From an uncultured Poribacteria bacterium (GTDB lineage: Bacteria; Poribacteria; WGA-4E; WGA-3G), in NCBI GenBank assembly GCA_951813565.1, contig OX638351.1:3808001-3872000 (forward strand): a DNA stretch of 64,000 bases. The letters run 5' to 3'. A model generated the notes under the pieces. It was given only the letters and a program-made list of their open reading frames with translations. It searched no databases and had not been told where the DNA came from. Both the position numbers and the translations under genes were made by a program. Positions 9,627 to 30,239 of this stretch are shown here, in pieces. The stretch's first letter is position 1, and the number at the start of each line of letters is the position of its first letter.

Positions 9627-9640
9627 TTTTATGCATGTTG

Positions 9641-9940
9641 GGTTTCGCACGCTCTACCCATAGATGTCAATTTAAAAAAACATGACACACCTATTCCGAC
9701 TCGGTAGGAGCGTTTCTAACCACTCCGTATTATCTCAAAGGGTCTTGTGGGAGGCGTTTTCAACGCCGATATATCGCGCGGACAAAGCGCTCCACAAAGA
9801 GGTCTTGCCAAGAGTGACAACCAGATAAAGTAAGTCCGATTTATTACCCAAAGGTAGGCGCGTTTACAAAACGCGCCTACCAGGGTGGTGTGCCGCTAAA
9901 TTGACAGTTATGGGTTTCGCACGCTGCCACCCAACCTACG
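9641..9940. repeat. CATA...TATG-ended MITE (9659-9912) inside a REP hairpin, with REP cargo
   Basis: CATAGATGTCAATTTA / TAAATTGACAGTTATG ends; flanking direct repeats GGTTTCGCACGCT(CT/GCC)ACC. Confidence 0.8.
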
Positions 9941-10110
9941 AGATAATGTAATATAATCACTTAGAAATGGTATAGGCTGTGGGTACTATGACTCAAACGT
10001 TTTTAAACTACTGCCCAAATTCCTCAATTAAAATCTTTTTCGCATTTTTTTAAACCGTTTTCCTAAATTCTCCCCTCTTTATAACCGAAATCTAATTGGG
10101 AATTCTGTTT

Positions 10111-13100
10111 ATGCACTACAATTTTATCACTCCAAACAACTTAACAGATGCAGAACTGGTTCGGCTTGTTCAAGCTCGCGATGAATCAGCATTCACGGAA
10201 TTGGTGTCTCGTTATAGCCCACGAATTTGGAATATCGTTGTCGAAAATTCGAGGCAAAGACGGGATGCGGAAGAAATTCTCATGGACATCTGGCTGGCTG
10301 TTTGGGAAAACATCATCGGTCTACGAAAAGCGGAAAGTTTTGGCGGCTGGTTACGCAGAATTGCTTACACCGCCTGCAACAGATACTACGCCTCCAACTT
10401 ACATCGGCAAAACGAAATTGTGCTTAGTTATGAAGATTTAGCTTTGCAGATTGATAGAGAAGCAGAACAGCGTTTTCATGATGCAAGCCTCAGAGCAGAT
10501 GCAAGAGAGGCTGTCCATCACCTTCCACAGAAGGTGCGGTCTGTTGGAATATTGTACTACCTCGAATTGTGGAGTATCAAAGAGATTGCAGATGAACTCA
10601 ACTTAGCAATCGGCACAGTCAAGACGAAGCTAAGCGAAGTCCGACAACTGCTCCGCAAGGAATTTGAGGTAGAGATAGAACCTATAAGGAGGGGAACTAT
10701 GACTCTTGAACAGAAAAAATCTGATAATTTGCAAACCAAGATAAAAGTTATAGGAGTCGGCGGAGCAGGTTGCAATGCTATAAAACGAATGATTGAAGAA
10801 GACTTCGTAGGCATTGAATTCTGTGCTGTTGATACCGATAAGGACACACTTAGCACATGCAACGGTGCAACACAAGTGCAAATAGGTGTTAACACTACTC
10901 AAGGCAGTAGCGCAGATGGAAATTTGGAAATCGGGAAAAGAGCGGCTGCGGAAAACATGGATGAACTCCGATCTATTGTTTCAGACGCAAAAATGGTTTT
11001 CATTACCGCAGGCATGGGCGGTGGAACCGGCACAGCCACTGCACCTCTAATAGCGTCGCTTGCACGAGAGCAAGGGGCATTAACAGCCTGCTTTGTAACA
11101 CGCCCGTTCGATTCTGAAGGCGAACACCGTGCTGAAAAAGCGGCGTATGGATTACGAGAATTGCAAAATAGTTCACGTGTCTGTGCGGATGCTGTTGTCG
11201 TTGTGCCGAACCAACGAGTTCTTGATATGATTGACCAAGAATTGCCGATACAGGAAGCGTTCCAAAAAAGCGATGAAATCCTGGTCCAAGGCGTTAGATG
11301 CATTGCAGATATGCTTGTAGAAACTGGCGAAATTTCTCTTGACTTTGATGATATTCAAAGTGTGCTGCGTGACCAAGGGTCTATTCTCATGGGTATTGGA
11401 AAAGCAAAAGGTGAAAATCGCGCGAAAATCGCTGCAGAAAACGCAATTTCCTCTCCTTTACTTGAAGAAAACAGTATTGCGGGAGACGGTGTGTGGATTG
11501 TTAACATTGCCTCGCCGCCAAATTTCACAATGCAGGAATTGGATCAAGCCATGAAAATCATTGTAGAAACATGTGAAAATGCCCAACCTATCTTCGGATT
11601 AGTCTACAAGGATGAATTAGAACTTAACGATGAAGTTCTTGTAACTGTCCTTGCTAATGGACTTGATTCACAAAAAGAACAGGTTTCTCCAATTTCTTCC
11701 AGCGAACGTAGTGCATCTACTGGCCAAGGCAATGTTATTTCGCCTTCAAGCGGTTCAGAATTTGTTCATCTACACAATCACAGTGAATATAGCTTGTTAG
11801 ACGGTGCGTGTCGAATCCCAGATATGGTGCAGTGGGCAATTGAGAACAGTTCGCCTGCTGTTGCACTTACAGACCACGGTAACATGTTCGGTGCGTGGGA
11901 ATTTTACAACACTGCTAAAGCAGCAGGTGTTAATCCCATTGTCGGATGTGAGGTATATGTTGAAACGGAAAAAGAAAAATCAGATAGCAATTCCCAATGT
12001 TCACCGTCCCATCTCACCTTACTTGCAGAAGACACTGTAGGATATCATAATCTTTTAGAATTGACATCACTGGGATATACAGAAGGTTTCCATAGAAAAC
12101 CGCGCATCAACCTGGAAATGCTGCGTGAACATCACGGTGGCATTATTGCACTGACAGGATGCATTAATGGAATAGTGCCGAAGCTAATTTGTTCTAATCA
12201 AAGAGACGAAGCAGTCCGAAACTTGTTAGAATTGAAAGACATCATGGGAGAGGATAACCTCTTTGTAGAAGTTCAAAACCACTATACTGATGAGGAGTTA
12301 ACGACATATCCAGTGATGGTTGAGTTCGCAAATGAATTCAATCTTCCTATCGTGGGGTCAAACGATTGCCACTACCTCCGAAAATCCGACCACCGCATGC
12401 ACGAGGTCCTTCTCTGTATCCAGACAAAGAAGACCGTCAACGACCCAGAACGGATGCGATTTAACAATCATTTTTACTTTAAAAATGTTGACGAAATGCG
12501 GGAAGCACTTAAGGATTATCCACCCGAAGCAATTATCAATACAGTTGAAATTGCTGATCGGTGTAATCTGAAACTGGATTACGACAAAAGTGTGATGCCA
12601 ATATTTGAGATTCCTGATGGACATACACATAACAGTTATCTGAAAGAACAGTGCTACAAAGGTTTGCAAGAAAAATATGGAGGACATATCTCTGAACCGA
12701 TTCATAGGCGGTTGGATTATGAACTGGATGTTATTCAACAAACTGGTTATGCAAATTATTTTCTGATTGTCGCAGATTACGTCGGCTACGCCAACGAACA
12801 AGGTTATTTACTCTCTGCTCGCGGTTCTGCTGCAAGTAGCCTCGTGCTTTATGCGCTCGGTGTAATCAATTTCAATCCGATGGATCATGGGTGTTTGTTT
12901 GAAAGGTTTTTAAATCTTAATAGAATAAATCCGCCGGACATTGATATAGATTTTGCTGCCCATGCCCGTGACGATGTGATTGATTACCTCGTGAGGAAAT
13001 ACGGTCATGATTCTGTCGGTAAAGTTGCTACCTTTGCTAAGTTGGGGGCAAAAACTGCTATCAAAGATGTCGGACGTGCACTTGAAATCCCTCTTGATAA

Positions 13101-14403
13101 CATAGATACCTTGACAAAACTAATTCCAAACCAGCCGGGGATTGCGCTTGATGATGCTTTGGAACAAGTGTCTGAATTTCAGACGCTTGCTGAACTCCCT
13201 GAAAATAGAGAGTTAATTGAAATTAGCAGAGCAGTAGAAGGTATGAAACGGCATGTCTCATGTCATTCATCTGCAATTGTGGTTTCAAACGGACCACTTA
13301 GCAATTACGCCCCACTTTTCAAGGATAGACATGGACAAATCGCAACGCAATTTGAGGGAAAAACGGTTGAAGATGTTGGCATTATTAAACTTGATACACT
13401 TGGTGTCCGAAGTCTTTCAGAGGTTGCTGATTGTCTCAATATGATTCTGGAAAACCGTGGTCGCAGGATTGCACTTGAAGATATTCCATTTGACGATAAA
13501 CCGACTTATTCACTCATTAGTGAAGGATTGATTGCTGGGTTGTTCCAACTCGAAACCTCTTTCGGTATGTATAATGTGGTTACCGAACTTAAGCCAGAAA
13601 ATTTTGAGGTATTTTCCGCAATTCCTGCGCTTTATCGTCCAGGTCCGTTAGAAAGCGGCATGATGCAGCAGTTTATCAACCGAAAAAATGGATTAGAATC
13701 GGTGAGTTATCTGCATGCGTCGTTTGAGGATGCCCTTAAAAACACTTACGGTGTCTGTATCTATCAGGAACAGGTGATGCAAATTGCGTGTGATATTGCC
13801 GGGTTCACGCTTGGTGAGGCAGATATCCTCCGTGATGCGATAGGAAAAAGGAAAGTAGACGTCCTTGAAGAACAACGTCCGAAATTCATCAATAGGGCAG
13901 TTCAAAAGGGTATTTCCACTAAAGAAGCAGAGGAGATATACGACCACCTTGAACAACTTGGCAAATATGCTTTCAACAAATCGCACTCCGTAGCTTATGC
14001 GCTATTAGCCTACCGAATGGCGTATCTAAAAACGCATTATCCACATGAATTTATGGCAGCAATGATGACGGGAGAGGCAGCAAACAAAGAAAAGATAAAG
14101 CGTTACCAAGCTGAATGTGCGAAACTCGCTGACTTTTTGGATGTAGAAATTAATCTGTTACCGCTTGATATCAACACCAGCGAAAAGAATTGCACTGTGG
14201 ATGGAAACGATATCCGTTTCGGGTTTGTTGCTCTCAAAGGCGTGAGTGATGAAGTGAAAGATTTACTTCTTGTGAAAAGAAATCAGGACGGTTTATTCAC
14301 ATCGATTCAAGATTTCCGTGATCGTTTTGATTCAACAGAGATGGACAAAGAAGTGATTGAAAGTCTCGTCGCCTCAGGTGCATTTAACGCTCTTCCCGCA
14401 TAA
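10111..14403 (+). CDS. Fusion protein: ECF sigma factor + FtsZ GTPase core + DNA polymerase III alpha (DnaE) PHP/polymerase core
   Basis: Sigma ~10140-10670 (DAELV..AFTELV..DAEEI..F.GWL.RIA; SIKEIADEL..GTVKTKL); FtsZ ~10735-11660 (KIKVIGVGGAGCNA, AGMGGGTGT, PF..EG, LDFDD, A..AISSPLL); DnaE 11761-14400 (FVHLHNHSEYSLLDG, RGSAA, PPDIDIDF, ALYRPGP, YQEQVM, YAFNKSH). ORF track start is TTG 10096. Confidence 0.9.
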   Translation: MHYNFITPNNLTDAELVRLVQARDESAFTELVSRYSPRIWNIVVENSRQRRDAEEILMDIWLAVWENIIGLRKAESFGGWLRRIAYTACNRYYASNLHRQNEIVLSYEDLALQIDREAEQRFHDASLRADAREAVHHLPQKVRSVGILYYLELWSIKEIADELNLAIGTVKTKLSEVRQLLRKEFEVEIEPIRRGTMTLEQKKSDNLQTKIKVIGVGGAGCNAIKRMIEEDFVGIEFCAVDTDKDTLSTCNGATQVQIGVNTTQGSSADGNLEIGKRAAAENMDELRSIVSDAKMVFITAGMGGGTGTATAPLIASLAREQGALTACFVTRPFDSEGEHRAEKAAYGLRELQNSSRVCADAVVVVPNQRVLDMIDQELPIQEAFQKSDEILVQGVRCIADMLVETGEISLDFDDIQSVLRDQGSILMGIGKAKGENRAKIAAENAISSPLLEENSIAGDGVWIVNIASPPNFTMQELDQAMKIIVETCENAQPIFGLVYKDELELNDEVLVTVLANGLDSQKEQVSPISSSERSASTGQGNVISPSSGSEFVHLHNHSEYSLLDGACRIPDMVQWAIENSSPAVALTDHGNMFGAWEFYNTAKAAGVNPIVGCEVYVETEKEKSDSNSQCSPSHLTLLAEDTVGYHNLLELTSLGYTEGFHRKPRINLEMLREHHGGIIALTGCINGIVPKLICSNQRDEAVRNLLELKDIMGEDNLFVEVQNHYTDEELTTYPVMVEFANEFNLPIVGSNDCHYLRKSDHRMHEVLLCIQTKKTVNDPERMRFNNHFYFKNVDEMREALKDYPPEAIINTVEIADRCNLKLDYDKSVMPIFEIPDGHTHNSYLKEQCYKGLQEKYGGHISEPIHRRLDYELDVIQQTGYANYFLIVADYVGYANEQGYLLSARGSAASSLVLYALGVINFNPMDHGCLFERFLNLNRINPPDIDIDFAAHARDDVIDYLVRKYGHDSVGKVATFAKLGAKTAIKDVGRALEIPLDNIDTLTKLIPNQPGIALDDALEQVSEFQTLAELPENRELIEISRAVEGMKRHVSCHSSAIVVSNGPLSNYAPLFKDRHGQIATQFEGKTVEDVGIIKLDTLGVRSLSEVADCLNMILENRGRRIALEDIPFDDKPTYSLISEGLIAGLFQLETSFGMYNVVTELKPENFEVFSAIPALYRPGPLESGMMQQFINRKNGLESVSYLHASFEDALKNTYGVCIYQEQVMQIACDIAGFTLGEADILRDAIGKRKVDVLEEQRPKFINRAVQKGISTKEAEEIYDHLEQLGKYAFNKSHSVAYALLAYRMAYLKTHYPHEFMAAMMTGEAANKEKIKRYQAECAKLADFLDVEINLLPLDINTSEKNCTVDGNDIRFGFVALKGVSDEVKDLLLVKRNQDGLFTSIQDFRDRFDSTEMDKEVIESLVASGAFNALPA

Positions 14404-14421
14404 TACATCTTTCCTACCATC

Positions 14422-14452
14422 ATGGGCAGGTCATTGTGTCTGCCCATCTTTA
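14422..14452 (+). terminator. Probable intrinsic terminator after the fusion gene
   Basis: ATGGGCAG-10nt-CTGCCCAT followed by CTTTA. Confidence 0.55.
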
Positions 14453-14588
14453 TGTGCCGATTCCATCCCCTCTTACAAATGGATTGACTTTCCATAAAAT
14501 ATCTGATATACTTACAGAAACAGGCGCAGTTGATTGTAGGGTTCAAATTTATCCTTCACATTACCTTTATACTTCAGGAGATGGCGCG

Positions 14589-15260
14589 ATGCAACCCAAA
14601 ATACACTCAGCCCCAGCAATCGTCTATCCCGAATCGGACGGTAAACCTATGGCAGAGACTGACTTACATCGAAATCTGATGTTTGATTATATTAAAATGC
14701 TAACACACCATTTTGAAAACAGGAATGACGTTTATGTATCGGGCAATTTGCTGATATACTATGAAGAAGGCAACCCCAAAAAGTCGGTTGCGCCTGATGT
14801 GTTTGTCGTCTTCGGCGTATCAGAAAAATCCCGTCGTACCTTTTTGACATGGGAAGAGGGGCAAACCCCAGACTTTGTGTTAGAGGTAGCAAGTGCCAGC
14901 ACACATCAAAACGACATCGGACATAAGAAAGATCTTTATGCGTCAGTACTTGAAGTTGAAGAGTATTATATCTACGATCCGTATGGCGAGATAAGTCCGA
15001 ACTTCATAGGTTACCGTTTAGTAGAAGGGGCATATCAAGAAATTGAGTTTGTTGATGAACGACTCCCTTCGCGTGTGCTTGGTTTAGAACTCGGTGAACG
15101 TGATGGTGTATTTGGTCTATACAACCCAGATACTGGAGAATGGTTGCAACCGCCTGAACAGCGTGCCGAACAAGAATCCGCTGCTCGGAAAGACGCTGAA
15201 GCTGAACTTGCAAAAGCCTTAGCTGAACTTGAACGTCTTCGTGCAACCATCAACGATTGA
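14589..15260 (+). CDS. Uma2 (DUF820) family endonuclease
   Basis: YPESDGKPMAE, APDVFVV, PDFVLEVAS, D..KK.LY, EEYYIYDP; C-terminal coiled tail; CAGGAG RBS before ATG 14589. Confidence 0.9.
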   Translation: MQPKIHSAPAIVYPESDGKPMAETDLHRNLMFDYIKMLTHHFENRNDVYVSGNLLIYYEEGNPKKSVAPDVFVVFGVSEKSRRTFLTWEEGQTPDFVLEVASASTHQNDIGHKKDLYASVLEVEEYYIYDPYGEISPNFIGYRLVEGAYQEIEFVDERLPSRVLGLELGERDGVFGLYNPDTGEWLQPPEQRAEQESAARKDAEAELAKALAELERLRATIND

Positions 15261-15302: not shown

Positions 15303-16205
15303 ATGAATAGTACCGAACGTTTCCACAACTTTACCCAAGTCGAACTACCGCAAGGTTTTAAGGAAAGACTCAATAGAAAGCAGGTAGCCGAGATTACGTT
15401 TTCACCGAACGGTTCACGACTTGCAGCAGGCGGTGCCGAACGAATCTGGGTATACGATTTAGCCAGTGGTGAACAGTCTACTGTGCTTTCAGGGCATACA
15501 GATAAAATCCGTGCGATAGCATTCGCGCTAGACAATCGCACCCTCGCCAGTGCAAGTGAGGACAGTACCCTCCGATTATGGGACGCAGACACTGCTAACG
15601 AAATAGCAACGCTCGCAGGCGAATCTTCAAGTTTAGTCAGTGCGTTAGCATCATCTCCAGACGGTGTGCCACTGACCGCGTGGAATGAGGAGACCGCGCT
15701 TATGTTAAGCGGTTCAACTGCTGACCCCGCCAGAATTAGAGCGTTAGCCTTCTCATCAGATGGAAATACGCTTGTGAGCGGCGGTGTGGACGGTAAAATT
15801 CGAGTCTGGGAATTAGAAACTGGTCGTCAGTTGTCATCTATTGCAGCACATGATGGATTAGTATTGGCACTTGCATTTTCCCCTGACGGCAAACTGCTTG
15901 CCAGTGGTGGATCAGATGCTACAGTGCGGTTATGGGAATTAGACAGTAAACATCTTCTTTCAACCTTTACCGCACATTCGGATTCGGTAAATGCCTTAGC
16001 GTTTTCCCTTGATGGGAAAATACTTGCGAGTGGCGGGAGAGATCCAGAAATCCGGTTATGGAATGTAGGAGCGATGGGTCTGATGTCCACTATCCCTGCG
16101 CAAGCAGGTTTTGTGTGGGAATTGGCATTTTGGGGCAGCGATCAAGACGATAAACAACAACTTATCAGTGTAAGCAGAGATGGTGTGCTTTTTGTGAGAG
16201 AATAG
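15303..16205 (+). CDS. WD40 repeat protein
   Basis: Repeated GH/AH...AFSPDG..LASG..D..VRLW(D/E) units. Confidence 0.92.
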   Translation: MNSTERFHNFTQVELPQGFKERLNRKQVAEITFSPNGSRLAAGGAERIWVYDLASGEQSTVLSGHTDKIRAIAFALDNRTLASASEDSTLRLWDADTANEIATLAGESSSLVSALASSPDGVPLTAWNEETALMLSGSTADPARIRALAFSSDGNTLVSGGVDGKIRVWELETGRQLSSIAAHDGLVLALAFSPDGKLLASGGSDATVRLWELDSKHLLSTFTAHSDSVNALAFSLDGKILASGGRDPEIRLWNVGAMGLMSTIPAQAGFVWELAFWGSDQDDKQQLISVSRDGVLFVRE

Positions 16206-16331: not shown

Positions 16332-17700
16332 ATGTGTTATCCTGACCAAAAGTATTATATCATGTTTTTCTTTCAACGCTACAAAGATTTTGAGGTGTCT
16401 ATCAAATACAATCAAACTAAAGGTAAAGGGAGACCTAAAATACATTCTGATAGTTCACTTGTTGTCTTCTTCGCCTTTATGGAACTTAGAGGTATAAATC
16501 GGTTCAAAGCACAGCATCTATTTCTTCTCACACATGCAGACTGGTTGAAGCGGTTCAAGTTCAAAAGTGTCCCTGATCGAACGACCTTATCCCGTCGCTA
16601 TAAACAACTAATACCAAATTAACGAGAATTGCATTGTTTTCATTGCCGATGGTAAGGGCGGGCACAGAGACCCGCTCCTACGATTTAGGGTAATTTGGTA
16701 TTACTTCCTTCTTCCTGTAGGAGCGAGCTCCAGCTCGCGACATCTTATACCAAATTAACGAGAATTGTATTGTTTTCACTGCCGATGGTAAGGGCGGGCA
16801 CAGAGACCCGCCCCTACGATTTAGGGTAATTTGGTATTACTTCCCTCTTCTTGTAGGAGCGAGCTCCAGCTCGCGACATCTTATACCAAATTAACGAGAA
16901 TTGCATTGTTTTCACTGCCGATGGTAAGGGCGGGCACAGAGACCCGCCCCTACGATTTAGGGTAATTTGGTATAACACTGCGTATTGAGCAGTTTGTTGA
17001 GTATCTCGGTGATTTGGGTGTATCTTTAGACACTCAGACCCCCCGAGATATTGTCTATGAAGACAAAAGTCTCTATAAAGCACAAGGCAGTGTATGGCAT
17101 CAAAAGCACCGAAAAGCGAACCACATCCTTGAAGGATTACGCGCCCTGGATACAGATGCGAGTTGGTCAACAAGCAAGTATCGCGGATGGGTTTATGGGT
17201 ATGGACTTCATCTCACAACTACTGCCAACGGATTTCCACGGTTCGCCGATGTTTATACTGCTTCTGTGAGTGAAAAAACGGGACTTGACCAAAAGATTGA
17301 TGCGCTGCTTGATCGGAATATTAGGTATATCGTAGCAGATGCTGGCTATACTGACTTTGCGCGTATCCAGACACACGCAAAAAACGGATTATTCCTTTTG
17401 ACACCCATAACGGTTGCTAAAAACAACAAAAAGTTAGCTTATCTTGAGGCGATTGAAACATCACCACACCTACAAGCATATCAGCAAAAACGCAAAACAA
17501 CCATTGAACCGATCTTTAGTCTGCTATGCGAACTGACAGGAACAGATAATAATCAGAAACAACTTCCGGTGAGCCGTATTGAAAATGTCAAACCCTTTTT
17601 ATTATTGTCAATCGTCCTGCTACAAATAGCAATGTTAGTCAACCTAATTTGGAACTTACCAAGTAGAGAAGTTTCACGGATGATCGCTTTATTTCAATAA
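16332..17700 (+). pseudogene. DDE transposase disrupted by a 364-bp MITE array
   Basis: PDRTTLSRR N-terminal part; GWVYGYGLH, ADAGY, R..IEPIF in C-terminal part; deleting 16612-16975 gives one 334-aa ORF. Confidence 0.85.
16609..16975. repeat. Three 89-bp TACCAAATT...AATTTGGTA MITE copies at 136-bp period
   Basis: Copies with TAA/TTA flanks at 16609-16703, 16745-16839, 16881-16975; spacers contain GTAGGAGCGAGCTCCAGCTCGCG. Confidence 0.92.
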
Positions 17701-17806: not shown

Positions 17807-20800
17807 CTATTCATCAAGGGCGAAACGTAGCACACCCCGTCTGAATGTGCCAACATAGAGCGTATTCCCATCAACATCAAGACAAGAAACAGGATACGGA
17901 ATTTCTGGAGTGACTTGATGCCAAGTGTCTGAACCCTCCTGCAGTTGATATACTTTTCGCCTTGCAGTGCTGTAAACCGTTGTGCCATCCACAGCAAACC
18001 TAACCACGACAAGAGGAATTCCCTCTGCGTCAGTAAGCGTCTGCCAGTCAGTGCCATTTCTTGACCGAATAACACCTTTGTCGGTTGCCACATAAACAGA
18101 GTTTCCAACGAAAGTTATTGCATTGAAACGTCCAACAGAAAATGGTAGATTTTCGGTAACATCGTTCCAAGTGTCGCCTTCATCAAACGATTGCATGAGG
18201 CGTCCATCCCGTTTGCCGACGTAAACAGTTTTTCCTGAAACGGCAAACCATAAATTCTTGGCAATGACAAATTTGGAATTTAAGTCTATATGAATAGGTT
18301 TATCTATATCCGATATTCCTGTGTTGTACCAATTCAGGGATCCAATACGCCATCTGAAGAGTTCGTTTTGATATTCTAAGTAGTAAGCTGTGTCTGTAAC
18401 CGAGAAATTTCCAAGATGTGCCACAATTAGAAATTGGTTTTCGTTTTGACTAAGCTCAATCCACTCATGCGAAAATTGGCTCTTTGTCAAACCGAGTACA
18501 TTTTTCAAAACGGGTACTCTTGGAATATCTGTGAAGCTATTTCCTTCGGAAGACAATCGCAAAAAACGAGATGTACCTTTTCTACCTATACTGGCATAGA
18601 GTTCTCCATTGAATACTTCAATGTGTGTGAAGTCACTCGTATCGTTGGAAAAGGGTATCCATGATTCTCCATCATCAATAGAATACACAAGTCCAGTTTC
18701 TGTGTTCGCGTAAAGAGTCCCGTTAAGAACAATTAATTGTTGGACATTCGTATTCACAAGTCCGGTATTAAATTGATGCCACGACTTACCACTATCAGTT
18801 GAGCGATGAATCCCGTGAGTACCGCTTCTAAAGATAGTAGTTGCATTCAACATTACTGCCCCGGTAGCACTACTAATTTTGTCAGCCCCAACTTCAACTG
18901 TCGCCTTTTTTCCAGCATCAATTGAGTAGAATTCGCCTGCAGCTAAAGATGTCCACTCCTCACCAGCATCAATTGAGTAGAAGTGATCCTCACCGTCCAT
19001 CACCATCACTTTTACTCCGGATGCGGTAATCTTGGGAATTGAATTTTCCGCATTTGCCCATTGTATTTCTGATATTGCATAAGTGCTGTCTGGTAATTTA
19101 TTCACCTGTGGTTCTCTCTTTGGAGAACGACGGTTTTGAAGCTGTTTCTTGTCAGGAGAATCATACCTCGGAGTTATAGATTTCCACGAATTACCACGGT
19201 CGGTTGAGTGAAAAAGGGACCAAGCGATTCTTAGGGCTTCATTTCCCCTTAATTCTATCCAGCCTGGCAATTGTTTATCAGAAGGTGGAATAACAGTTGT
19301 GATGATACTTTCTGAACCGACTTTATATAATAGACCATCAGAAAATATCACTCCTTCCATTATTGCTGCAACATAGAGATGATTTTCTGTAACTACTAAC
19401 GCTACGATATCAAGTGTCTCATCTTGTGCATCCTCAGGATTGATAGATACTTGCTCCCACGTATCAGAATTAAGACGAAAGAGTCCTTTATCGGTACCCG
19501 CAAAGACAGTATTCTCAATCGCGGCGATTGCTTTAATTTTCTTGTCTTTTAGACCTTCGGGTAGTAGGGTCCACGATTTACCTGCATTATCCGTACGGAA
19601 TACTACGTTAGTATACGCAAGGTAGATAGTCATGTCGCTTAGTGCACCTGGAATTCCATCTGTTATTACCATATCAACAAGTGGTCCTTCTATAGACTCA
19701 CAGAGTGTCTCCCATGTTTCTCCTCTATCTGTAGAAGCCAGTATCTCATTCATGGTCGCGAGGTAGAGCGTATCCTGACGTTCTACTACGGGCCACCACA
19801 TTGGACTGGGTGTCAGTAAAGTGTGTGAAGGTCCCTTAGTGTTATTAATAAGTTTCCACGCAGTACCATCATCTGTGAGTCTGTATAAACCGTGTCGTGT
19901 GCCTGCGAACACGTCCCCACGGGTTGTTGTGAAGAGCCCAGACACTAAACCGCCTTCCGGTCCTTTCGTTTGTACCCACTGTTGTTTTGCGTTTGAAACC
20001 TCAGTTTCATCTGCGTTCGCTGCAGCGAATAGTGGATCATCAGGTTTCTGTCCTACCCCATTGCTCTTACCTGTTAAATCCACATGTCCAACTTGATTTC
20101 TCACTGCAGGTTTTGCTGGAGAATCAATGACAAGTTGTGCTTCTGATATTTCAATTGTTCGTTCTGATTGTGCGTTTAAGTTATACGGCTTTTGAAAATC
20201 ACTAAGACGTTGTGTGCCAATTCCCATCAGCAATAGCACTAAGACTGCAGAGGCAGCAGACATTGCTAACGGCACAAGTGGCTTACTGCCTGAAGGTGCG
20301 ACCGGATTAAGTCGTGAAATTTCTTTCATAATGTTTTCTGTCATTTGTGTTGGCAGTTGGAAACTACTAAGGTTTTCTTTAATCATTGTTTCCTCTTTCT
20401 TTAATCGGTTGCGGGCGCGGCTAAGACGGCTCCTAACAGTATTTGGGGATACACCGAGAAACTCGCTAATAGATTCACACTTCATTTCTCCAAGATAGTG
20501 AAGCGTCATCACTGTTCGTTCGCTTTCTGGCAATTTTTTGAGCAAATCTCTAACCAGTTCACGCCGAATTTCGTTAGCATCTGCCTCTCGCTGTTCTTCC
20601 ACGTATTGTGTATATGCCACTTGGTCCACCTCTTTGCTATCAACGGTTTCTAAGGATTGTATCGGCAGGCGTTTCTTTCGGAGCCATTCATTACACAGGT
20701 TAGTGGCAATAACATAGAGCCACCCACAAAATAGGTTGTGATTTTTCAAAGTTCCGAGTTTTTGATATGCCCTAAGAAAAACGTCCTGTGTAATTTCCTG

Positions 20801-20935
20801 TGCGATATGAAAATCACCAATTTTCTGCCATGCCAGCGCGTGTACGCCCTTTTGATATTTTTCTACTAAGGCGGTGAACGCTGATTGATCACCGTCTAAT
20901 GTACGCTGAATCAGTTCAGCATCCTTCTTTTTCAT
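17807..20935 (-). CDS. ECF sigma factor fused via a hydrophobic segment to a BNR/Asp-box beta-propeller domain
   Basis: DAELIQRTL.GDQSAF, AQEITQDVFL, GWLYVIA, SPNTVRSRLSRAR; hydrophobic LAMSAASAVLVLLLMGIG; repeated S.D.G.(T/S)W boxes; GGAGG RBS before ATG 20935. Confidence 0.9.
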   Translation of the reverse strand: MKKKDAELIQRTLDGDQSAFTALVEKYQKGVHALAWQKIGDFHIAQEITQDVFLRAYQKLGTLKNHNLFCGWLYVIATNLCNEWLRKKRLPIQSLETVDSKEVDQVAYTQYVEEQREADANEIRRELVRDLLKKLPESERTVMTLHYLGEMKCESISEFLGVSPNTVRSRLSRARNRLKKEETMIKENLSSFQLPTQMTENIMKEISRLNPVAPSGSKPLVPLAMSAASAVLVLLLMGIGTQRLSDFQKPYNLNAQSERTIEISEAQLVIDSPAKPAVRNQVGHVDLTGKSNGVGQKPDDPLFAAANADETEVSNAKQQWVQTKGPEGGLVSGLFTTTRGDVFAGTRHGLYRLTDDGTAWKLINNTKGPSHTLLTPSPMWWPVVERQDTLYLATMNEILASTDRGETWETLCESIEGPLVDMVITDGIPGALSDMTIYLAYTNVVFRTDNAGKSWTLLPEGLKDKKIKAIAAIENTVFAGTDKGLFRLNSDTWEQVSINPEDAQDETLDIVALVVTENHLYVAAIMEGVIFSDGLLYKVGSESIITTVIPPSDKQLPGWIELRGNEALRIAWSLFHSTDRGNSWKSITPRYDSPDKKQLQNRRSPKREPQVNKLPDSTYAISEIQWANAENSIPKITASGVKVMVMDGEDHFYSIDAGEEWTSLAAGEFYSIDAGKKATVEVGADKISSATGAVMLNATTIFRSGTHGIHRSTDSGKSWHQFNTGLVNTNVQQLIVLNGTLYANTETGLVYSIDDGESWIPFSNDTSDFTHIEVFNGELYASIGRKGTSRFLRLSSEGNSFTDIPRVPVLKNVLGLTKSQFSHEWIELSQNENQFLIVAHLGNFSVTDTAYYLEYQNELFRWRIGSLNWYNTGISDIDKPIHIDLNSKFVIAKNLWFAVSGKTVYVGKRDGRLMQSFDEGDTWNDVTENLPFSVGRFNAITFVGNSVYVATDKGVIRSRNGTDWQTLTDAEGIPLVVVRFAVDGTTVYSTARRKVYQLQEGSDTWHQVTPEIPYPVSCLDVDGNTLYVGTFRRGVLRFALDE

Positions 20936-21143
20936 GGGAATCCTCCGGAGTTTTAGCATCCCTTGATTAATTAGACGCATCTTAGATCGTAAAATGTTGC
21001 ATTTTTTTTATGGTGAGCAGAAAATTAAATAATTTTCAATTTGTTGGCAATTATGTTATACTTTCATGCTATACTTTAATAGAAGCACACTGTAATGAAA
21101 AGGATTTTATAACCTTATATATTCACTTGGGTGGAGGAAAGGA

Positions 21144-24485: not shown

Positions 24486-27400
24486 ATGGCAGACGCGTCA
24501 ATTGACATCCACGGCGCACGAGAACATAACCTTAAAAATATTGATATTCAACTCCCAAAAGATAAACTGATAGTTTTCACTGGCGTTAGCGGTTCAGGTA
24601 AATCCTCACTTGCAATTGATACGCTATATGCCGAAGGACAAAGACGATATATAGAATCACTTTCTGCTTATGCACGGCAATTTTTAGGACAACTCGGTAA
24701 AGCAGAAGTTGACAAGATTATCGGTTTGTCACCCTCTATCGCTATCAATCAAGGTTCCACTGGACATAATCCCCGTTCAACGGTTGCGACTGTAACCGAA
24801 ATTTACGATTATCTTCGTGTTCTTTTTGCCCGCGCAGGAGAATTTCACTGTCTTGAATGTGGACAACAGGTCGGTTCACAAACAATTGCAGATATCGTTT
24901 CGCGGATCCTGAGTTTCCCACCACGCACGCGTCTCATGATTTTAGCACCTATCGTCAGAGGTAGACGCGGCGAATATCGAAAAGAGTTGTCAGACGCACG
25001 TAAGATGGGCTTCGTTCGCGCCCGAATTGATGGGGAAGTACACGAAATTAGTTCCAACATTGCTCTCAATCCGAATCAAACCCATAACATTGATATTGTC
25101 GTTGATAGGATTATCATTAAAGAAAATATCCATAGTCGCGTTGCTGATGCAGTTGAAACAGCGCTTTCCCTCGGAGATGATAGTTTAATTGTGAATGTTG
25201 TGTCTTCAGAAAGCAACACCTCTCGCAAGGCATCAGAAGGTGAAGATTTGCTGTTTAGTAGACAGTATGCCTGTGCAAACTGTCAAATTAGTTACGATGT
25301 ACCTGAGCCTCGCCATTTTTCTTACAACAGTCCTTACGGGATGTGTGAACAGTGCCGAGGATTGGGTGTGCAAATGGCAATTTCACCTAAACTAATTATA
25401 GCAGATGAAACACTTCCTATTTTGGAAGGGGCGATAATCTTATGGAAAAAACCCGGTCATGAAGAAAGGATGGTAGCTCAGTCCCTTGCATCACATTTAA
25501 AGTTTAAACTAAAAACGCCTTGGAAGGATCTGAAACCGGAGCAGCAGCATGCTGTCCTTTATGGGACAGGTGATAACGTGCTTACTTTTCGTCAACCTGC
25601 AAAGGATAGTAGGCGGCGTGGAAGACGTTTTCGCGGTAGATTTCAAGGACTGATCCCAGCGCATGAACAACGATTTCTCTCGTTAGACGTAGACGAAGAA
25701 GGGGATTCTCACCTTCCTGATTACTTTGTTAAGATGGAGTGCAGAGAGTGTAGTGGAACTCGCTTGCAGCAAGGGGTTAAAGCCATCACCATAGCAAACA
25801 TCAACATCACGGATGTACTGAATATGTCAATTCAAGACGCCACGTCCTTCTTTAATACCCTTGAACTCCCAGATCGCGAGGCTTTCATCGCTTCAGAACT
25901 GTTAAAAGAAATTCGCTCACGTTTAGGATTTCTGATGGACGTAGGTTTAGGATATCTAACACTGTCTCGTTCTGCCCCGACATTATCCGGTGGTGAGGCA
26001 CAACGGATCCGACTTGCCAGTCAAGTTGGAGCGGGTTTACGCGATGTGACTTATGTCCTTGATGAACCCAGTATTGGATTACACCCTCGTGACCATGCTG
26101 GTTTGCTGAAAACCCTGATGAATCTCCGTAATCAGGGTAATACCGTTATTGTCGTTGAACATGATGAAGCGACTATGTTGGTGGCAGATTGGATAGTCGA
26201 CTTCGGTCCTGGTGCTGGTATTAGAGGCGGTGAAATAACTGGTATGGGAACGCCGCAACAATTGATAGAAGGGAACGACTCACTTACAGCACAATATTTG
26301 CGCGGTGAAAAAGAGATTGTGCATCCCGAAGTGAGGCGTGCAACAGGTGAAAAGTGGGTGCAAATCTGCAATGCACGCCAAAACAACCTTAAAGAGATTA
26401 GCCCCAAAATCCCTGTGGGCACCCTCTGCTGTGTAACAGGTGTAAGCGGTTCCGGTAAAAGTTCGCTCATCCACGATATTCTCTACAGTGCACTTGCACG
26501 CGACCTCATGAAAGCAAAGACCGTGCCGGGTGACTACGACAACATTCAGGGTATTATTGAAGACGAAACTGTACCGGTATCTGATGTTATTGATAAAATT
26601 ATTAATATTGACATGGCGCCTATTGGACGGACGCCGCGTTCTAATCCAGCTACCTATACAAAGGTATTTGATGCAATCCGGGCCTTCTATACGAATTTAC
26701 CTGATGCTAAACTACGTGGATATAAAGCTGGGCGATTTAGTTTCAACGTTCCTGGGGGAAGATGTGAGGCATGCAGCGGCAATGGAGCAAAAAAAGTTGA
26801 CATGGGATTGCTGGCTGATGTTTGGGTGGAGTGTGACGTATGTAACGGCAAACGTTATAATAATGAAACACTCACTATTAAATATAAAGAGAAAAATATC
26901 TCTGATGTCCTTGAAATGGATGTTGAGGCTGCACTCACCCATTTTGCAGACCTGCCCAAAATAGCAAGAGGATTACAATTACTTCACGATGTTGGTTTGG
27001 ACTACCTCAAACTTGGACAACCTGCGCCTACGCTTTCAGGTGGCGAAGCACAACGGATTAAACTCTCAAAAGAACTTTCCAAACGCAGCACTGGCAAAAC
27101 ACTCTACATTCTTGATGAACCCACTACTGGCTTGCATTTCGACGATGTGAACAAACTGTTGACTATTCTCCATAGGTTAGTTGACGAAGGGAACACTGTG
27201 GTGGTGGTAGAACACAACCTTGAAGTCATCAATTCAGCAGATTATCTAATTGATTTAGGTCCGGAAGGAGGTGTCGGTGGCGGCACGGTCGTTGCAGTAG
27301 GCACCCCCGAAGAAGTTGCTGATATGCCGGAATCTTATACAGGGAAAGCGCTTTGCGGGGAATACGAACTCTGGAAAACTAAGGACACAGAACAGAAAAT

Positions 27401-30239
27401 AGTTGAAAATGGTTCCATGTTTGCATACGATCTTGATAGTCCAGGTTCCGAATTTTCCAAATCTATTATGGTTCGCGGTGCAGAAGAGAATAATCTTAAA
27501 AGCATTGATATTGAAATTCCGCATCAGAGATTAACTGCCTTTACTGGTGTTAGCGGGTCTGGCAAAACATCGCTTGCGCTTGACACAATTTACGCTGAAG
27601 GGCAACGTCGTTATATTGAAACACTTAGCACTTACGCACGCCAATTTATAGGCACGATGGAGAAACCGAAAGTCTCAAAGATTGAGGGATTGTCTCCAGC
27701 AATCGCTATTTCGCACTCCAGTCCCAGTCAAAACCCGCGTTCTACAGTGGCAACAATTACCGAAATCCACGACGGTTTACGCACACTTTATGCAAGATGG
27801 GGACAGCCACATTGTCCCGAATGCAAAACAGAGGTCCGCCCACAGACCGCGCAGGAAATAGTGGAACATGTTTTCCAACTTGTATCGGAAAAAAGAGTGG
27901 ATATCTTGTCTCCACTTACAAACTTTCGTATTCGAAACATCCAGAAAATCGCTGATAACGTTTCTCGAATGACTGAATCTGAAGTGGTAATAGGAGCTGA
28001 ACGCACACCCGGCTTGAAAGGAAACGAGGACTACGCTGACGCGTTTCGTAGGTTGCAAAGAACAGGTTTCGCGCGCGTGCAAATTGATGGTGAGATTTAC
28101 CGACTCGATGAAGCACCGGAAATTCATAAACGTCGCCGCCATGAAGTTTTCCTCGTCATAGATCGTATTCAGCTTGCTGATGATGAAAAGAGTCGTTTTA
28201 CGGAAGCGGTTGAATTAGCACTCATAGAGAGCGAAGGCTTTGTTATTGTAGAGGAGAAGAAAGACCAAGAAGATACTCACAGATACTTCTTTAGTGAGCA
28301 TGCTATGTGTTCAAAATGTGGTCGGAATTTCCCGCAGCTAACGCCTCGGCACTTCTCCTTTAATAATAGATTGGGAGCATGCAGTTCATGTGAAGGGATC
28401 GGTAGGTCACTTTCGGGCACCCAGGAAATCTGTGAAACCTGTAATGGGACACGGTTAGACGAATTTCCTCGTAACGTCAAGTTCTCTGAAGCAACTATTG
28501 CTGAGTTGATGGCAATGCCGATTTCGGAGATTATCAAATTTTTTACTATACGGGTGGAAGCGATTGAGAAACACCTTTCAACAACTGCTGGTGCGCAAGC
28601 AGCAAAAGCAGCCAGAGATCAGGTGAAAGACGTATCAACCTCAAGGGCAACACACACGACGCTTCACACACATACTTCACCTGAGTTTGAGGCACAACTG
28701 CTCCGGCAAATTCAGATACGCCTCAAGTTTTTGGAGGACATCGGGCTCGGTTATCTTGGTTTGGACCGACCTGCACCAACACTTTCTGGTGGAGAAATCC
28801 GTAGAATCCGCCTTGCGAGTCAGCTTGGTACCGGTCTAACTGGCGTAACTTATATCCTTGATGAACCGAGTATTGGACTACACCCTCGCGACCAAGAACG
28901 GTTGATTTTAGCGATGAAGGATTTACGCGATATTGGCAATAGTGTCCTTGTTGTTGAGCATGATAGAGATACGATTTTATCTGCAGACCATATCATTGAT
29001 TTTGGTCCGAAAGCGGGTAAGCAAGGGGGCGAAATAGTCGCCACTGGTTCACCTATAGCCTTTACAGATTCGGAACCTATTACCCTCTCTTCTGCAACAC
29101 CAGCAAACACTAATGGTGATTCAGGTGGAGCAGCGTCTGCACTTCAGGGTAAAGGATTGACACAAGCGTATCTCTCCGATGAAATGCAAATTCGCGTTCC
29201 AGCTGTGCGGCGTAAAGGGTCAGGGAAATGGCTGAAGTTGATTGGTGCTAAGACAAACAATCTTAAAAATATTGACATAAAAATTCCGTATGGAACGTTT
29301 ACCTGTGTTACAGGTGTTTCAGGATGTGGTAAGAGTTCACTTATTGAAGGCACGTTACGTCCCGCTTTGGATGCCCGACGTTCTATCAGAAAGGGAAACG
29401 AACAAGCAGAAACTCCTTATGGAACCGCAGTGTACGATAGCATTCAAGGAACGAGTGCAATCGAACGGCTTATCCACATTGATCAGAAACCGATTGGTGA
29501 AACACCCCGATCCAACCCTGCGACTTATACCGATCTGTTCACCAAAATCCGCGAAATGTTTGCTGAGCTGCCGGATGCCAAACTCCGCGGATTTAACCGA
29601 GGGAGATTTAGTTTTAATCTCTCCTACGGACAGTGCGAAGTGTGTGATGGACAACGTTTTAATCGTGTAGAAATGCACTTCCTTCCTGACGTATGGATAC
29701 CGTGCGAAAACTGTAACAGCACAGGTTATAATGCTGAAACGCTTGAAGTGCGTTACAAGGGCAAAAACATTGCAGAGGTATTACAGATGACCGTGCAGGA
29801 AGCACTTGAGTTATTTAGTAACATCAATCGGATTAAACGACCACTCCAAACTTTAGCAGATGTTGGTTTAGATTATATCCAATTGGGACAAGCTGCGACC
29901 ACATTATCTGGAGGTGAAGCGCAGCGCGTTAAACTTGCGAAGGAGCTTGCCCGCCGCCAATCCGGTACAACCCTCTATATTATGGACGAGCCGACAACAG
30001 GCTTGCACTTTGATGATGTCCAAAAACTACTCAATGTGCTGAATAAACTCGTTGATGCAGGCAATACAATTGTCGCTATAGAACACAATATAGATGTTAT
30101 TAAATCTGCTGATTGGGTTATTGATTTAGGTCCTGAGGGCAGTGAAGGTGGCGGCAATCTTGTTGCGATGGGCACCCCCGAAGAAGTTGCTGAAGTAGAG
30201 GAATCGCATACTGCGCGTTTTCTACGTCAAGTGTTGTAA
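24486..30239 (+). CDS. uvrA: Excinuclease ABC subunit A, double-length (two tandem UvrA units)
   Basis: Four Walker A (GVSGSGKS, GVSGSGKS, GVSGSGKT, GVSGCGKS), four LSGGE and DEP motifs, zinc fingers; 1917 aa. Confidence 0.95.
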   Translation: MADASIDIHGAREHNLKNIDIQLPKDKLIVFTGVSGSGKSSLAIDTLYAEGQRRYIESLSAYARQFLGQLGKAEVDKIIGLSPSIAINQGSTGHNPRSTVATVTEIYDYLRVLFARAGEFHCLECGQQVGSQTIADIVSRILSFPPRTRLMILAPIVRGRRGEYRKELSDARKMGFVRARIDGEVHEISSNIALNPNQTHNIDIVVDRIIIKENIHSRVADAVETALSLGDDSLIVNVVSSESNTSRKASEGEDLLFSRQYACANCQISYDVPEPRHFSYNSPYGMCEQCRGLGVQMAISPKLIIADETLPILEGAIILWKKPGHEERMVAQSLASHLKFKLKTPWKDLKPEQQHAVLYGTGDNVLTFRQPAKDSRRRGRRFRGRFQGLIPAHEQRFLSLDVDEEGDSHLPDYFVKMECRECSGTRLQQGVKAITIANINITDVLNMSIQDATSFFNTLELPDREAFIASELLKEIRSRLGFLMDVGLGYLTLSRSAPTLSGGEAQRIRLASQVGAGLRDVTYVLDEPSIGLHPRDHAGLLKTLMNLRNQGNTVIVVEHDEATMLVADWIVDFGPGAGIRGGEITGMGTPQQLIEGNDSLTAQYLRGEKEIVHPEVRRATGEKWVQICNARQNNLKEISPKIPVGTLCCVTGVSGSGKSSLIHDILYSALARDLMKAKTVPGDYDNIQGIIEDETVPVSDVIDKIINIDMAPIGRTPRSNPATYTKVFDAIRAFYTNLPDAKLRGYKAGRFSFNVPGGRCEACSGNGAKKVDMGLLADVWVECDVCNGKRYNNETLTIKYKEKNISDVLEMDVEAALTHFADLPKIARGLQLLHDVGLDYLKLGQPAPTLSGGEAQRIKLSKELSKRSTGKTLYILDEPTTGLHFDDVNKLLTILHRLVDEGNTVVVVEHNLEVINSADYLIDLGPEGGVGGGTVVAVGTPEEVADMPESYTGKALCGEYELWKTKDTEQKIVENGSMFAYDLDSPGSEFSKSIMVRGAEENNLKSIDIEIPHQRLTAFTGVSGSGKTSLALDTIYAEGQRRYIETLSTYARQFIGTMEKPKVSKIEGLSPAIAISHSSPSQNPRSTVATITEIHDGLRTLYARWGQPHCPECKTEVRPQTAQEIVEHVFQLVSEKRVDILSPLTNFRIRNIQKIADNVSRMTESEVVIGAERTPGLKGNEDYADAFRRLQRTGFARVQIDGEIYRLDEAPEIHKRRRHEVFLVIDRIQLADDEKSRFTEAVELALIESEGFVIVEEKKDQEDTHRYFFSEHAMCSKCGRNFPQLTPRHFSFNNRLGACSSCEGIGRSLSGTQEICETCNGTRLDEFPRNVKFSEATIAELMAMPISEIIKFFTIRVEAIEKHLSTTAGAQAAKAARDQVKDVSTSRATHTTLHTHTSPEFEAQLLRQIQIRLKFLEDIGLGYLGLDRPAPTLSGGEIRRIRLASQLGTGLTGVTYILDEPSIGLHPRDQERLILAMKDLRDIGNSVLVVEHDRDTILSADHIIDFGPKAGKQGGEIVATGSPIAFTDSEPITLSSATPANTNGDSGGAASALQGKGLTQAYLSDEMQIRVPAVRRKGSGKWLKLIGAKTNNLKNIDIKIPYGTFTCVTGVSGCGKSSLIEGTLRPALDARRSIRKGNEQAETPYGTAVYDSIQGTSAIERLIHIDQKPIGETPRSNPATYTDLFTKIREMFAELPDAKLRGFNRGRFSFNLSYGQCEVCDGQRFNRVEMHFLPDVWIPCENCNSTGYNAETLEVRYKGKNIAEVLQMTVQEALELFSNINRIKRPLQTLADVGLDYIQLGQAATTLSGGEAQRVKLAKELARRQSGTTLYIMDEPTTGLHFDDVQKLLNVLNKLVDAGNTIVAIEHNIDVIKSADWVIDLGPEGSEGGGNLVAMGTPEEVAEVEESHTARFLRQVL

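Follow-up and report, generated by a model that had tools for sequence, protein, structure and literature searches.

A single gene in the genome of an uncultured Poribacteria bacterium encodes an extracytoplasmic function (ECF) sigma factor that runs on, in the same frame, into a paralog of the division protein FtsZ and a truncated paralog of DnaE, the alpha subunit of DNA polymerase III (Pol III). The gene lies in a stretch of 64,000 nucleotides (nt) (OX638351.1, positions 3,808,001-3,872,000, forward strand), here called the window, whose positions serve as coordinates throughout (Table 1). We refer to the modules behind the sigma domains as the cargo. The fusion is a genuine single gene of one Candidatus Poribacteria family, across which copies of FtsZ and DnaE, normally textbook stand-alone proteins, are kept fused to a transcription factor. 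Whatever its function, it is a natural covalent link of transcription initiation, the division filament and the replicative polymerase. Full-text searches of the literature found no described sigma-FtsZ or sigma-DnaE fusion, in agreement with an earlier note on this DNA, made from the sequence alone, which knew of no described fusion of such modules. ECF sigma factors with fused regulatory extensions are a known kind of protein; the novelty lies in what this extension is made of. We tentatively read the protein as an ECF sigma factor without an anti-sigma factor that would be gated by its C-terminal cargo, by a mechanism that we infer, and we put this reading at somewhat under an even chance.

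Architecture of the fusion gene

The frame is uninterrupted from 10096 to 14403 on the plus strand. Its first ATG in the open reading frame (ORF) listing is at 10111, where public gene callers place the start too (P0002, 1430 amino acids (aa)). As the earlier note had said, this one frame holds sigma regions 2 and 4, an FtsZ core, a Ser-rich linker and the DnaE domains, all of which are borne out by the frame together with Pfam and NCBIfam. Each of the three parts scores above the curated cut-off of an NCBIfam model: the sigma part with 63.5 versus 42.9 bits for TIGR02937 (sigma70-ECF), the FtsZ part with 306.6 versus 295.2 bits for TIGR00065, and the DnaE part with 1031 versus 1002 bits for NF004226. 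In Pfam terms the sigma part has regions 2 and 4 (r4_2/r4) without r3 or r1, the composition that defines ECF group 4, and its region-2 motif DAEEI..D.W..VW.N is invariant or nearly so across 120 homologs.

The FtsZ module lacks the C-terminal FtsA-binding peptide: canonical copies end in DIPAFLRVQ and fused ones do not. For DnaE, the core from PHP to HhH is present as the earlier note had described it, with one feature overlooked there, namely that the clamp motif, the oligonucleotide/oligosaccharide-binding (OB) fold and the tau-binding end are missing. The DnaE match reaches only profile position 884 of 1146, and the protein ends just past the HhH domain; canonical DnaE has its internal clamp-binding motif, QMNLF, about 90 residues past the point where the fusion ends. 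This C-terminal end point is conserved among orthologs. The next ORF is not the remainder of DnaE, as it encodes a Uma2 nuclease. Nor is the gene part of a split-intein DnaE: there is no intein, and the genome has just two DnaE matches, the fusion gene and a full-length canonical copy. The translation has no Met in the FtsZ-DnaE linker, and past the stop stands the terminator-like hairpin that the earlier note had pointed out, with 10 pairs and a T tail, as a consensus match. Unlike that linker, the junction between sigma and FtsZ does contain a Met.

The fusion is conserved in one Poribacteria family

The source genome is a single 5.43-Mb contig, and 0.93-1.00 of the words sampled from positions 9900-14500 are present in nine runs from four studies. 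The earlier note had proposed to map reads across both junctions; an independent contig from run X8 (record 13) covers 10075-12388, which takes in both, with 13 substitutions and no indels. A contig from run X2 spans the whole gene, and may itself be the source. In the polyA RNA library X18, a 247-nt contig is identical to 10242-10488 and there is a further piece of 40 nt, neither of which proves that the gene is transcribed; gaps in the coverage of the gene in X9 and X18 carry no meaning.

Uninterrupted full-length orthologs, with 61-86% identity and frames of 1412-1454 aa, occur in 10 of 24 other genomes of the genus. A query of 181 residues across the FtsZ-DnaE junction matched 63 of the 112 genomes of the family (f1: 18 in genus g1, 1 in g12 and 44 in g13), and two further truncated junction forms were present in this family. 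The same query matched 0 of 64 genomes from ten other families of the phylum, and no ortholog was found in 16 genomes of three other families. In a collection of 5.8 billion proteins, the best 120 listed clusters all have sigma, FtsZ and PHP, and most have the rest of DnaE. The few clusters with a name are annotated as 'DNA polymerase III subunit alpha' or 'cell division protein FtsZ' and come from Candidatus Poribacteria; automatic names in public records hide such genes. The architecture that the earlier note had proposed to look for in other genomes is thus found across one family and nowhere among the 64 genomes from elsewhere in the phylum, and its view of a finished gene agrees with the orthologs in the genus, the family-wide matches and the independent contig.

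Some copies in relatives are interrupted or truncated, as a misassembly, a sequencing error that erased stops or a decaying pseudogene would lead one to expect: the ortholog in G019 is a shorter form with one TAA, that in G024 is partial at a contig end with one TAG, that in G020 is split in two frames, the sigma-FtsZ forms of G021 and G007 hold a stop, and C-terminal truncations of several lengths exist. However, the same architecture recurs in 63 genomes, in many assemblies and in the best 120 listed protein clusters, the independent contig crosses both junctions without indels, the genome is a single contig, dN/dS (the ratio of nonsynonymous to synonymous substitution rates) is low in every domain, and the end point of the protein is kept. 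An artefact or a dead gene is therefore, in our estimation, vanishingly improbable.

Origin from duplicated host genes

The same genome has the separate canonical copies that the earlier note had wished to see confirmed: a dnaE with a 1195-aa frame and the full profile, and an ftsZ of 448 aa directly downstream of ftsA. The fusion gene does not adjoin ftsA. In quick maximum-likelihood trees (LG+G4, SH-aLRT support only), the fused FtsZ copies form one clade (100), as do the fused DnaE copies (100), and each fused clade nests within the canonical clade of the same genus, apart from the copies of other families (99-100). The trees, also proposed in that note, thus make fused FtsZ and DnaE lineage-specific duplicates, and from this nesting we conclude that the cargo derives from duplicated host ftsZ and dnaE. 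Both retain complete N-termini (for FtsZ, MTLEQKK.. in the fusion versus MIDFEQEEF.. in the canonical protein; for DnaE, ..SGSEFVHLHNH versus MSSEFVHLHNH), as in a head-to-tail gene fusion in which the stops were lost. The gene is made of ftsZ and dnaE duplicates joined head to tail behind an ECF sigma gene.

Secondary forms have often arisen from this arrangement. Sigma-FtsZ genes of about 590-670 aa retain the first 30-50, partly degenerate, PHP residues, and sigma-DnaE genes derive from in-frame deletion of the FtsZ core with the DnaE frame kept (three examples). Two C-terminal length classes exist, one of about 1350 aa without HhH and one of about 1425 aa with it. In a tree of the sigma domain, secondary forms emerge several times inside triple-fusion lineages, and the paralogs with WD40 cargo or half an FtsZ nest among FtsZ-bearing forms; the order of the cargo swaps is tentative, because the root sits on a very long branch.

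Two side observations concern DnaE. In some genomes of the genus there is an extra clade of free DnaE paralogs (992-1185 aa; L042-L047, L053) that is neither canonical nor fused. P0115 (1743 aa; also at G137:C1 ~2600000) is a variant of the triple fusion that is longer by about 340 residues at its C-terminus. This extra region has no Pfam match; it was considered as the missing DnaE C-terminus and dismissed, as it is not DnaE.

Selection and active sites

We estimated dN/dS by the Nei-Gojobori method between nine orthologs and the window gene, and did the same with the canonical genes of those genome pairs; some domains of the most distant ortholog show saturated dS. Values were 0.07-0.13 for the sigma module, 0.17-0.36 for fused FtsZ, 0.05-0.16 for PHP, 0.06-0.17 for the palm, 0.11-0.22 for the fingers, 0.12-0.18 for the HhH tail and 0.13-0.16 for the DnaE part as a whole, compared with 0.04-0.07 for canonical dnaE and 0.06-0.07 for canonical ftsZ. 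The FtsZ-DnaE linker, which is variable in sequence, gave 0.12-0.94. The domain-by-domain estimate that the earlier note had called for hence indicates purifying selection on all three modules; the cargo is constrained, yet two to three times freer to evolve than the essential copies.

Among 120 aligned homologs, the PHP metal ligands are kept in 112-120 and the polymerase catalytic Asp triad in 112, 118 and 117, in both cases with the window gene included. The FtsZ motif GGGTGT is kept in 115-120 and present in the window gene, and the two Asp residues of the T7 loop are kept in 114 and 118. The T7 loop of the window gene reads SLDFDD, with Ser in place of an Asn that 91 of the 120 have. With their ECF profile, invariant sigma region 2 and kept FtsZ and DnaE catalytic residues, the modules look competent.

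An internal ribosome-binding site at the sigma-FtsZ junction

Just before the junction Met stands a Shine-Dalgarno (SD)-like element, an internal ribosome-binding site that the earlier note had overlooked. This Met (Met202) is invariant in 69 aligned homologs. The anti-SD duplex energy, calculated for the 20 nt ahead of the ATG, has a mean of -9.3 kcal/mol in 25 family genes and is at or below -6 in 22 of them (in the other three an earlier Met was scored). By the same measure, 405 other in-frame ATGs of the orthologs come to -2.3, 27 approximate gene starts in the window to -4.8, canonical ftsZ to -4.3 and canonical dnaE to -7.4. The amino acids that the element encodes vary (RRG, RGK, KGE, RSG) while the purines are constant, and the 15 junction codons have low dS and, in this small sample, a dN/dS near 1.

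The junction Met is the original start of FtsZ, with the former ftsZ ribosome-binding site now in frame. The element probably also yields a sigma-less FtsZ-DnaE protein; alternatively, it may be left over from the fusion or mark a place where translation pauses. Other genes that contain an SD and a start in frame make a long and a short product. Like them, the fusion has a strong conserved SD and an ATG at a domain boundary; it differs from them in that its short product is predicted from sequence alone.

Elements of this kind can stimulate frameshifting, as in dnaX and prfB, and in the window both alternative frames meet a stop near the junction, so that programmed frameshifting on the SD-like stretch might end sigma translation there and leave separate proteins with no covalent fusion. 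However, the stops in the alternative frames are not conserved (in the G006 ortholog, L007, for instance, the +1 frame lacks one nearby), and for this reason we rejected a programmed frameshift. There is also no slippery heptamer at the junction, and the deletions in the family are in frame and keep the downstream frame, which shows selection for read-through. We regard separate proteins produced in this way as very improbable.

Promoter and regulon

About 30 nt 5' of the ATG stands a putative ECF-type promoter, written as TTTAAACC-N18-CTCTTTA (short form TTTAAACC-N18-CTCT). The motif TTTTTTTAAACC-N18-CTCTTTA is kept in 11 of 12 aligned orthologous upstream regions, the twelfth (L014) being mis-anchored, and it is present in 9 of 9 other family genes with a located start; five loci were unresolved. 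The genome of the window has four sites of this type, which lie before three close sigma paralogs (62% identity, the fusion gene included) and a MacB-type permease. A look-alike at C1:1746550 (-) was dropped as a further regulon site because no ORF lies within 760 nt.

In ten related genomes the exact pattern gave 26 matches versus 0 for the reversed control; with relaxed patterns, chance matches would swamp the result. Nineteen of the 26 lie 13-49 nt 5' of genes of the sigma subfamily, one lies before an intact MacB_PCD + FtsX permease in G006, one before an exported WD40-like protein and one before another ECF fusion, and four have no ORF. The permease has the motif about 100 nt upstream in two genomes (C1:2184969-2186359 (+); L077:1637-2905), and in the genome of the window it is split into two frames (253 + 206 aa). 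Since 19 of 26 matches stand before sigma-cargo genes, what the sigma factor mainly yields would seem to be more of itself and its cargo, and autoregulation of the fusion gene through this putative promoter is likely. No anti-sigma gene was found adjoining the fusion gene, whose neighbours are an ATP-binding cassette (ABC) permease and a Uma2 nuclease. These are not conserved across species, with the ABC permease upstream of 5 of 12 orthologs and Uma2 beside 4 of 12. In L096 (G142:C1:4410107-4413139), the motif stands 107 nt 5' of a gene whose ECF fusion belongs to a different subfamily (starting MKNDD..), hinting at a sigma cascade.

A modular family of sigma-cargo proteins

The fusion belongs to a modular family with sigma-FtsZ, sigma-half-FtsZ, sigma-DnaE and sigma-WD40 members, a membership that the earlier note had overlooked. 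We surveyed cargo by searching with the sigma domain for longer proteins, and among the best 120 of 489 matches the types were FtsZ-DnaE, FtsZ, half-FtsZ (many, 395-409 aa), DnaE, PHP alone and WD40 (850-874 aa). The sigma subfamily is about 60% identical, and the junction '..LLRKEF.VEP...GxM' is common to all members surveyed. The two paralogs of the fusion gene in its own genome carry half an FtsZ and a second sigma region-2-like fragment, respectively (Table 1). Half-FtsZ fusions form a widespread, length-conserved class, and the double-sigma paralog has orthologs in G006, G017 and G023.

A search of the bacterial family for DnaN gave about 35 matches in open frames of 576-616 aa. The three frames inspected (in G023, G142 and G021; L104, L105 and L106; 581-594 aa) each consist of an ECF sigma factor, a Met and a full beta clamp. 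The clamp-fused sigma factor is of another subfamily, 24-26% identical to the sigma part of the fusion gene, and in G142 the sigma-clamp fusion adjoins a sigma-half-FtsZ gene. No sigma-clamp fusion was found in the genome of the window, which has two tandem dnaN genes (C1:2262529-2264917 (-)). From the FtsZ-DnaE and clamp fusions we conclude that sigma factors of this bacterial family have acquired FtsZ, Pol III alpha and sliding-clamp paralogs as fusion partners.

Table 1 Features of the sigma-FtsZ-DnaE gene and its paralogs in the same genome. Residue numbering of P0001 begins at position 10096.
Feature	Position	Strand	Remarks
Sigma-FtsZ-DnaE(core) fusion, whole gene	10111..14403	+	1430 codons and TAA stop
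ECF-type promoter motif, TTTTTTTAAACC and CTCTTTA	10048..10081	+	TAAACC 10051-10056, 18-nt spacer, CTCTTTA 10075-10081
ECF sigma module	10201..10659	+	region 2 10201-10395, region 4 10501-10659; PF04542, PF08281, PF04545
Shine-Dalgarno-like AAGGAGG and ATG	10686..10701	+	AAGGAGG 10686-10692, six bases, ATG 10699-10701 (junction Met), in frame
FtsZ paralog, GTPase domain and C-terminal domain	10738..11667	+	Pfam Tubulin, FtsZ_C; TIGR00065
Ser/Pro/Thr-rich linker, FtsZ to DnaE residue 2	11668..11760	+	no Met; about P0001 residues 525-555
DnaE (Pol III alpha) paralog: PHP, palm/thumb, fingers, HhH	11761..14400	+	Pfam, NF004226
Terminator-like hairpin ATGGGCAG..CTGCCCAT and T-rich tail	14422..14457	+	10 pairs, 5 G-C; hairpin proper 14422-14447, 3' of stop; consensus match only
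Sigma70_r2	P0001 residues 36-100		Pfam
Sigma70_r4_2	P0001 residues 136-185		Pfam
Tubulin	P0001 residues 215-379		Pfam, E 2e-39
FtsZ_C	P0001 residues 428-524		Pfam
PHP	P0001 residues 558-729		Pfam
DNA_pol3_alpha	P0001 residues 847-1103		Pfam
DNA_pol3_finger	P0001 residues 1108-1272		Pfam
HHH_6	P0001 residues 1352-1433		Pfam
Sigma + FtsZ GTPase-half paralog, 406 aa	C1:1599376-1600569	+	same promoter and junction signal
Sigma + second sigma region-2-like fragment, 315 aa	C1:3454023-3454967	-	same promoter and junction signal

Proposed mechanism and alternatives

Residues 1-550 were modelled with AlphaFold2 (AF2) from an alignment of 67 sigma-FtsZ and sigma-half-FtsZ proteins. Sigma region 2, sigma region 4 and FtsZ folded at a predicted local distance difference test (pLDDT) score of 80-94 (80-89 for sigma), with a predicted template modelling (pTM) score of 0.58, and model residues 188-207 at the junction and 520-550 in the linker had a pLDDT below 50. 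The model, weak evidence without the predicted aligned error, fits modules on a flexible tether, with about 20 residues between sigma and cargo. In ECF sigma factors that have no anti-sigma factor, sensing and regulation fall to N- or C-terminal extensions, some of which originated when the anti-sigma factor was fused on, according to the passages on such extensions in PMC8999054. In the gating that we tentatively favour, the cargo would take the place of an anti-sigma factor and set the availability of sigma to RNA polymerase. The FtsZ module, without its membrane-tether peptide, would co-assemble with the FtsZ filaments of the cell and hold sigma there, and the DnaE core, without clamp and tau contacts, would bring in primed-DNA binding or some other signal tied to replication. 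Sigma would be switched as the cargo is released or captured, and it would drive its own and its paralogs' promoters in positive feedback, plus a few genes such as the MacB-type ABC permease. The sigma-less FtsZ-DnaE from the internal start could compete or partner with the tethered cargo.

Several observations weigh against such gating. The AF2 model has no confident contact between sigma and FtsZ, so that cis-inhibition by docking as in ECF41 is not supported; without the predicted aligned error, docking is neither shown nor excluded. The motif stands almost solely before sigma paralogs, and no division or replication genes lie behind it in the genome of the window and the ten relatives; the targets other than sigma paralogs are the MacB-type permease (two genomes), the exported WD40-like protein and one other ECF gene. 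DnaE was lost repeatedly, with sigma-FtsZ forms of about 590 aa arising at least four times, which makes its input dispensable, and sigma-DnaE or sigma-PHP forms arose at least three times. In FtsZ, Asp replaces a Gly of the phosphate-binding T1 loop in 81 of 120 homologs (Gly in the window gene) and the T3 loop is degenerate (GSSADGNLE in the window gene versus GLGAGANPE in the canonical copy), so that GTP binding may be impaired. The strict catalytic conservation of polymerase and PHP would seem to exceed what a mere tether or sensor needs. Finally, that the gene is transcribed, yields a full-length protein and has sigma, FtsZ co-assembly and polymerase activity is in each case a prediction from sequence.

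The earlier note had ventured two functions, a checkpoint-like regulator that would couple the state of division and replication to a regulon and a decoy sensor, and no line of the analysis separates them. Besides gating we consider two other functions; neither the conserved active sites nor the recurrent loss of DnaE nor the very small regulon in view decides between the three. The cargo might be an integrated decoy that mimics targets, with FtsZ, DnaE and the DnaN of sister genes as bait for the phage proteins, toxins and natural-product antibiotics that commonly attack such proteins; an inhibitor bound to the bait would alter its assembly or conformation and free sigma for a protective response, for example through an efflux-type ABC transporter. 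The host, a sponge symbiont surrounded by many bioactive compounds, would be a fitting place for this. Across the bacterial family the cargo comprises FtsZ, Pol III alpha and beta-clamp paralogs, all retained beside intact canonical copies, its active sites are intact as a bait for active-site ligands would require, and the sole conserved non-sigma gene behind the motif is the MacB_PCD + FtsX permease. Spare copies of a target also have a precedent in the nargenicin dnaE homologue, as related in part of PMC8922275. Yet PADLOC, with its 2023 library, assigns the fusion protein to 0 families, neither a defence island nor a conserved biosynthetic cluster surrounds the gene, and its neighbours differ by species. 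Its evolution is purifying and not diversifying, with no sign of an arms race, the WD40 cargo of the same sigma subfamily is no obvious drug target, the permease is split in its own genome, and no ligand or phage partner is known. On balance we find a decoy unlikely. Slightly less probable still is the broad claim that the family's sigma factors carry integrated decoys of all three classic targets for inhibitors of replication and division (FtsZ and Pol III alpha in the fusion gene, the beta clamp in sister genes), so that bait attacked by toxins, phage proteins or natural products from the sponge community would be read out as transcription. If true, the decoy reading would give bacteria a counterpart of the integrated-decoy immune receptors of plants. 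In a bolder variant, sigma would bring a clamp-free polymerase to its own promoter, where the transcript would prime local DNA synthesis.

Alternatively, the cargo itself could be the effector and sigma only a self-activating switch for an alternative FtsZ and a clamp-independent polymerase, in which case the fusion and the free FtsZ-DnaE would serve special division, repair or gap filling whenever the promoter is on. This would agree with a promoter motif found almost solely before sigma-cargo genes, with an internal SD stronger than that of typical genes of the genome, with the conserved polymerase, PHP and FtsZ catalytic residues and with the extra free DnaE paralogs in relatives. A fragment of Escherichia coli alpha that ends near residue 917, close to the truncation point of the fusion, has reportedly been crystallised as the catalytic core. 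However, none of the family members seen has a stop that parts sigma from cargo, which argues that the tether itself is selected. The C-terminal peptide of FtsZ binds FtsA, the route to the membrane, which an FtsZ without this peptide cannot take. A polymerase without clamp contact would be poorly processive, and DnaE has been lost repeatedly. We find an effector cargo as unlikely as a decoy. We return below to gating by the cargo, our tentative preference, in comparing the fusion with known systems.

Relation to known systems

Passages of PMC8999054 describe long regulatory C-terminal extensions that are SnoaL-like in ECF41, tetratricopeptide (TPR) in ECF42, Cys-rich in ECF238 (CorE) and WD40-like in ECF57. 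The fusion resembles these proteins in its sigma2-sigma4 core, the absence of an adjacent anti-sigma gene, its long C-terminal extension and an apparently autoregulated promoter. Unlike theirs, its extension of about 1230 residues consists of paralogs of two essential enzymes with active sites intact and, unlike in ECF41, the AF2 model gives no sign that it docks on sigma. The WD40-like extension of ECF57 has its likeness in the WD40 repeats of the fusion's sister paralogs, whereas the fusion itself carries FtsZ-DnaE, and where ECF57 has two conserved Cys linking sigma2 and sigma4 (the same passages of PMC8999054), the fusion's sigma part has one invariant Cys (C94). Extensions made of FtsZ/tubulin or a DNA polymerase do not figure in the main texts of two papers on ECF classification, PMC7826278 and PMC7671368, leaving aside the supplements, which list the architectures. 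The fusion widens the range of possible ECF sigma extensions, and it opens a directly testable way to learn how cells might signal the condition of their division and replication machinery, or that it is under attack.

In Bacillus subtilis, SpoIIE and FtsZ couple sigma-F activation to septation via a separate phosphatase and a partner-switching cascade. Sigma activity is there tied to FtsZ assembly, as it would be in the gating mechanism, by analogy only and with no homology; that link is indirect, whereas the sigma factor of the fusion is covalently joined to an FtsZ paralog. Griselimycin producers hold an extra dnaN. The compound targets DnaN, and NarR/NgnU, a dnaE homologue beside the nargenicin cluster, has been proposed as a self-resistance 'decoy' (both from portions of PMC8922275). 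The fusion is like NarR/NgnU in having a diverged second DnaE (in sister genes, DnaN) beside the essential copy; however, NarR/NgnU is free and stands beside biosynthetic genes, while the DnaE of the fusion is truncated and fused, with no conserved cluster adjoining. In the split DnaE of cyanobacteria (DnaE-N and DnaE-C, with a split intein), DnaE likewise ends well before its normal C-terminus. The cyanobacterial DnaE-N model NF007079 matches the fusion at 598 bits, below its cut-off of 1525; the cyanobacterial system has an intein and a DnaE-C piece, the fusion has neither, and the break point differs.

Other features of the window

On the 5' side of the promoter, between 9639 and 9925, a 15-nt direct repeat, TGGGTTTCGCACGCT, occurs at 9639 and 9911, together with 19-nt inverted arms at 9656-9674 and 9897-9915; this segment, which the orthologous upstream regions do not have, may be a small inserted element. 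The gene 3' of the fusion (14436-15260 (+)) encodes the Uma2-family nuclease, which has weak PADLOC matches to PDC-S03, and is followed by a WD40 protein of 300 aa (15303-16205 (+)) and a DDE transposase fragment (17014-17700 (+)).

Another ECF sigma fusion lies at 17807-20980 (-). It encodes 1057 aa with regions 2 and 4 and a long extension that has weak Sortilin-Vps10/DUF6242 (beta-propeller-like) matches; its sigma factor is only distantly related and was used as outgroup. A protein of 1917 aa with two UvrA-like ABC ATPase units is encoded at 24486-30239 (+); in PADLOC it strongly matches two models of the MADS defence system, mad3 (588 bits) and mad8 (236 bits).

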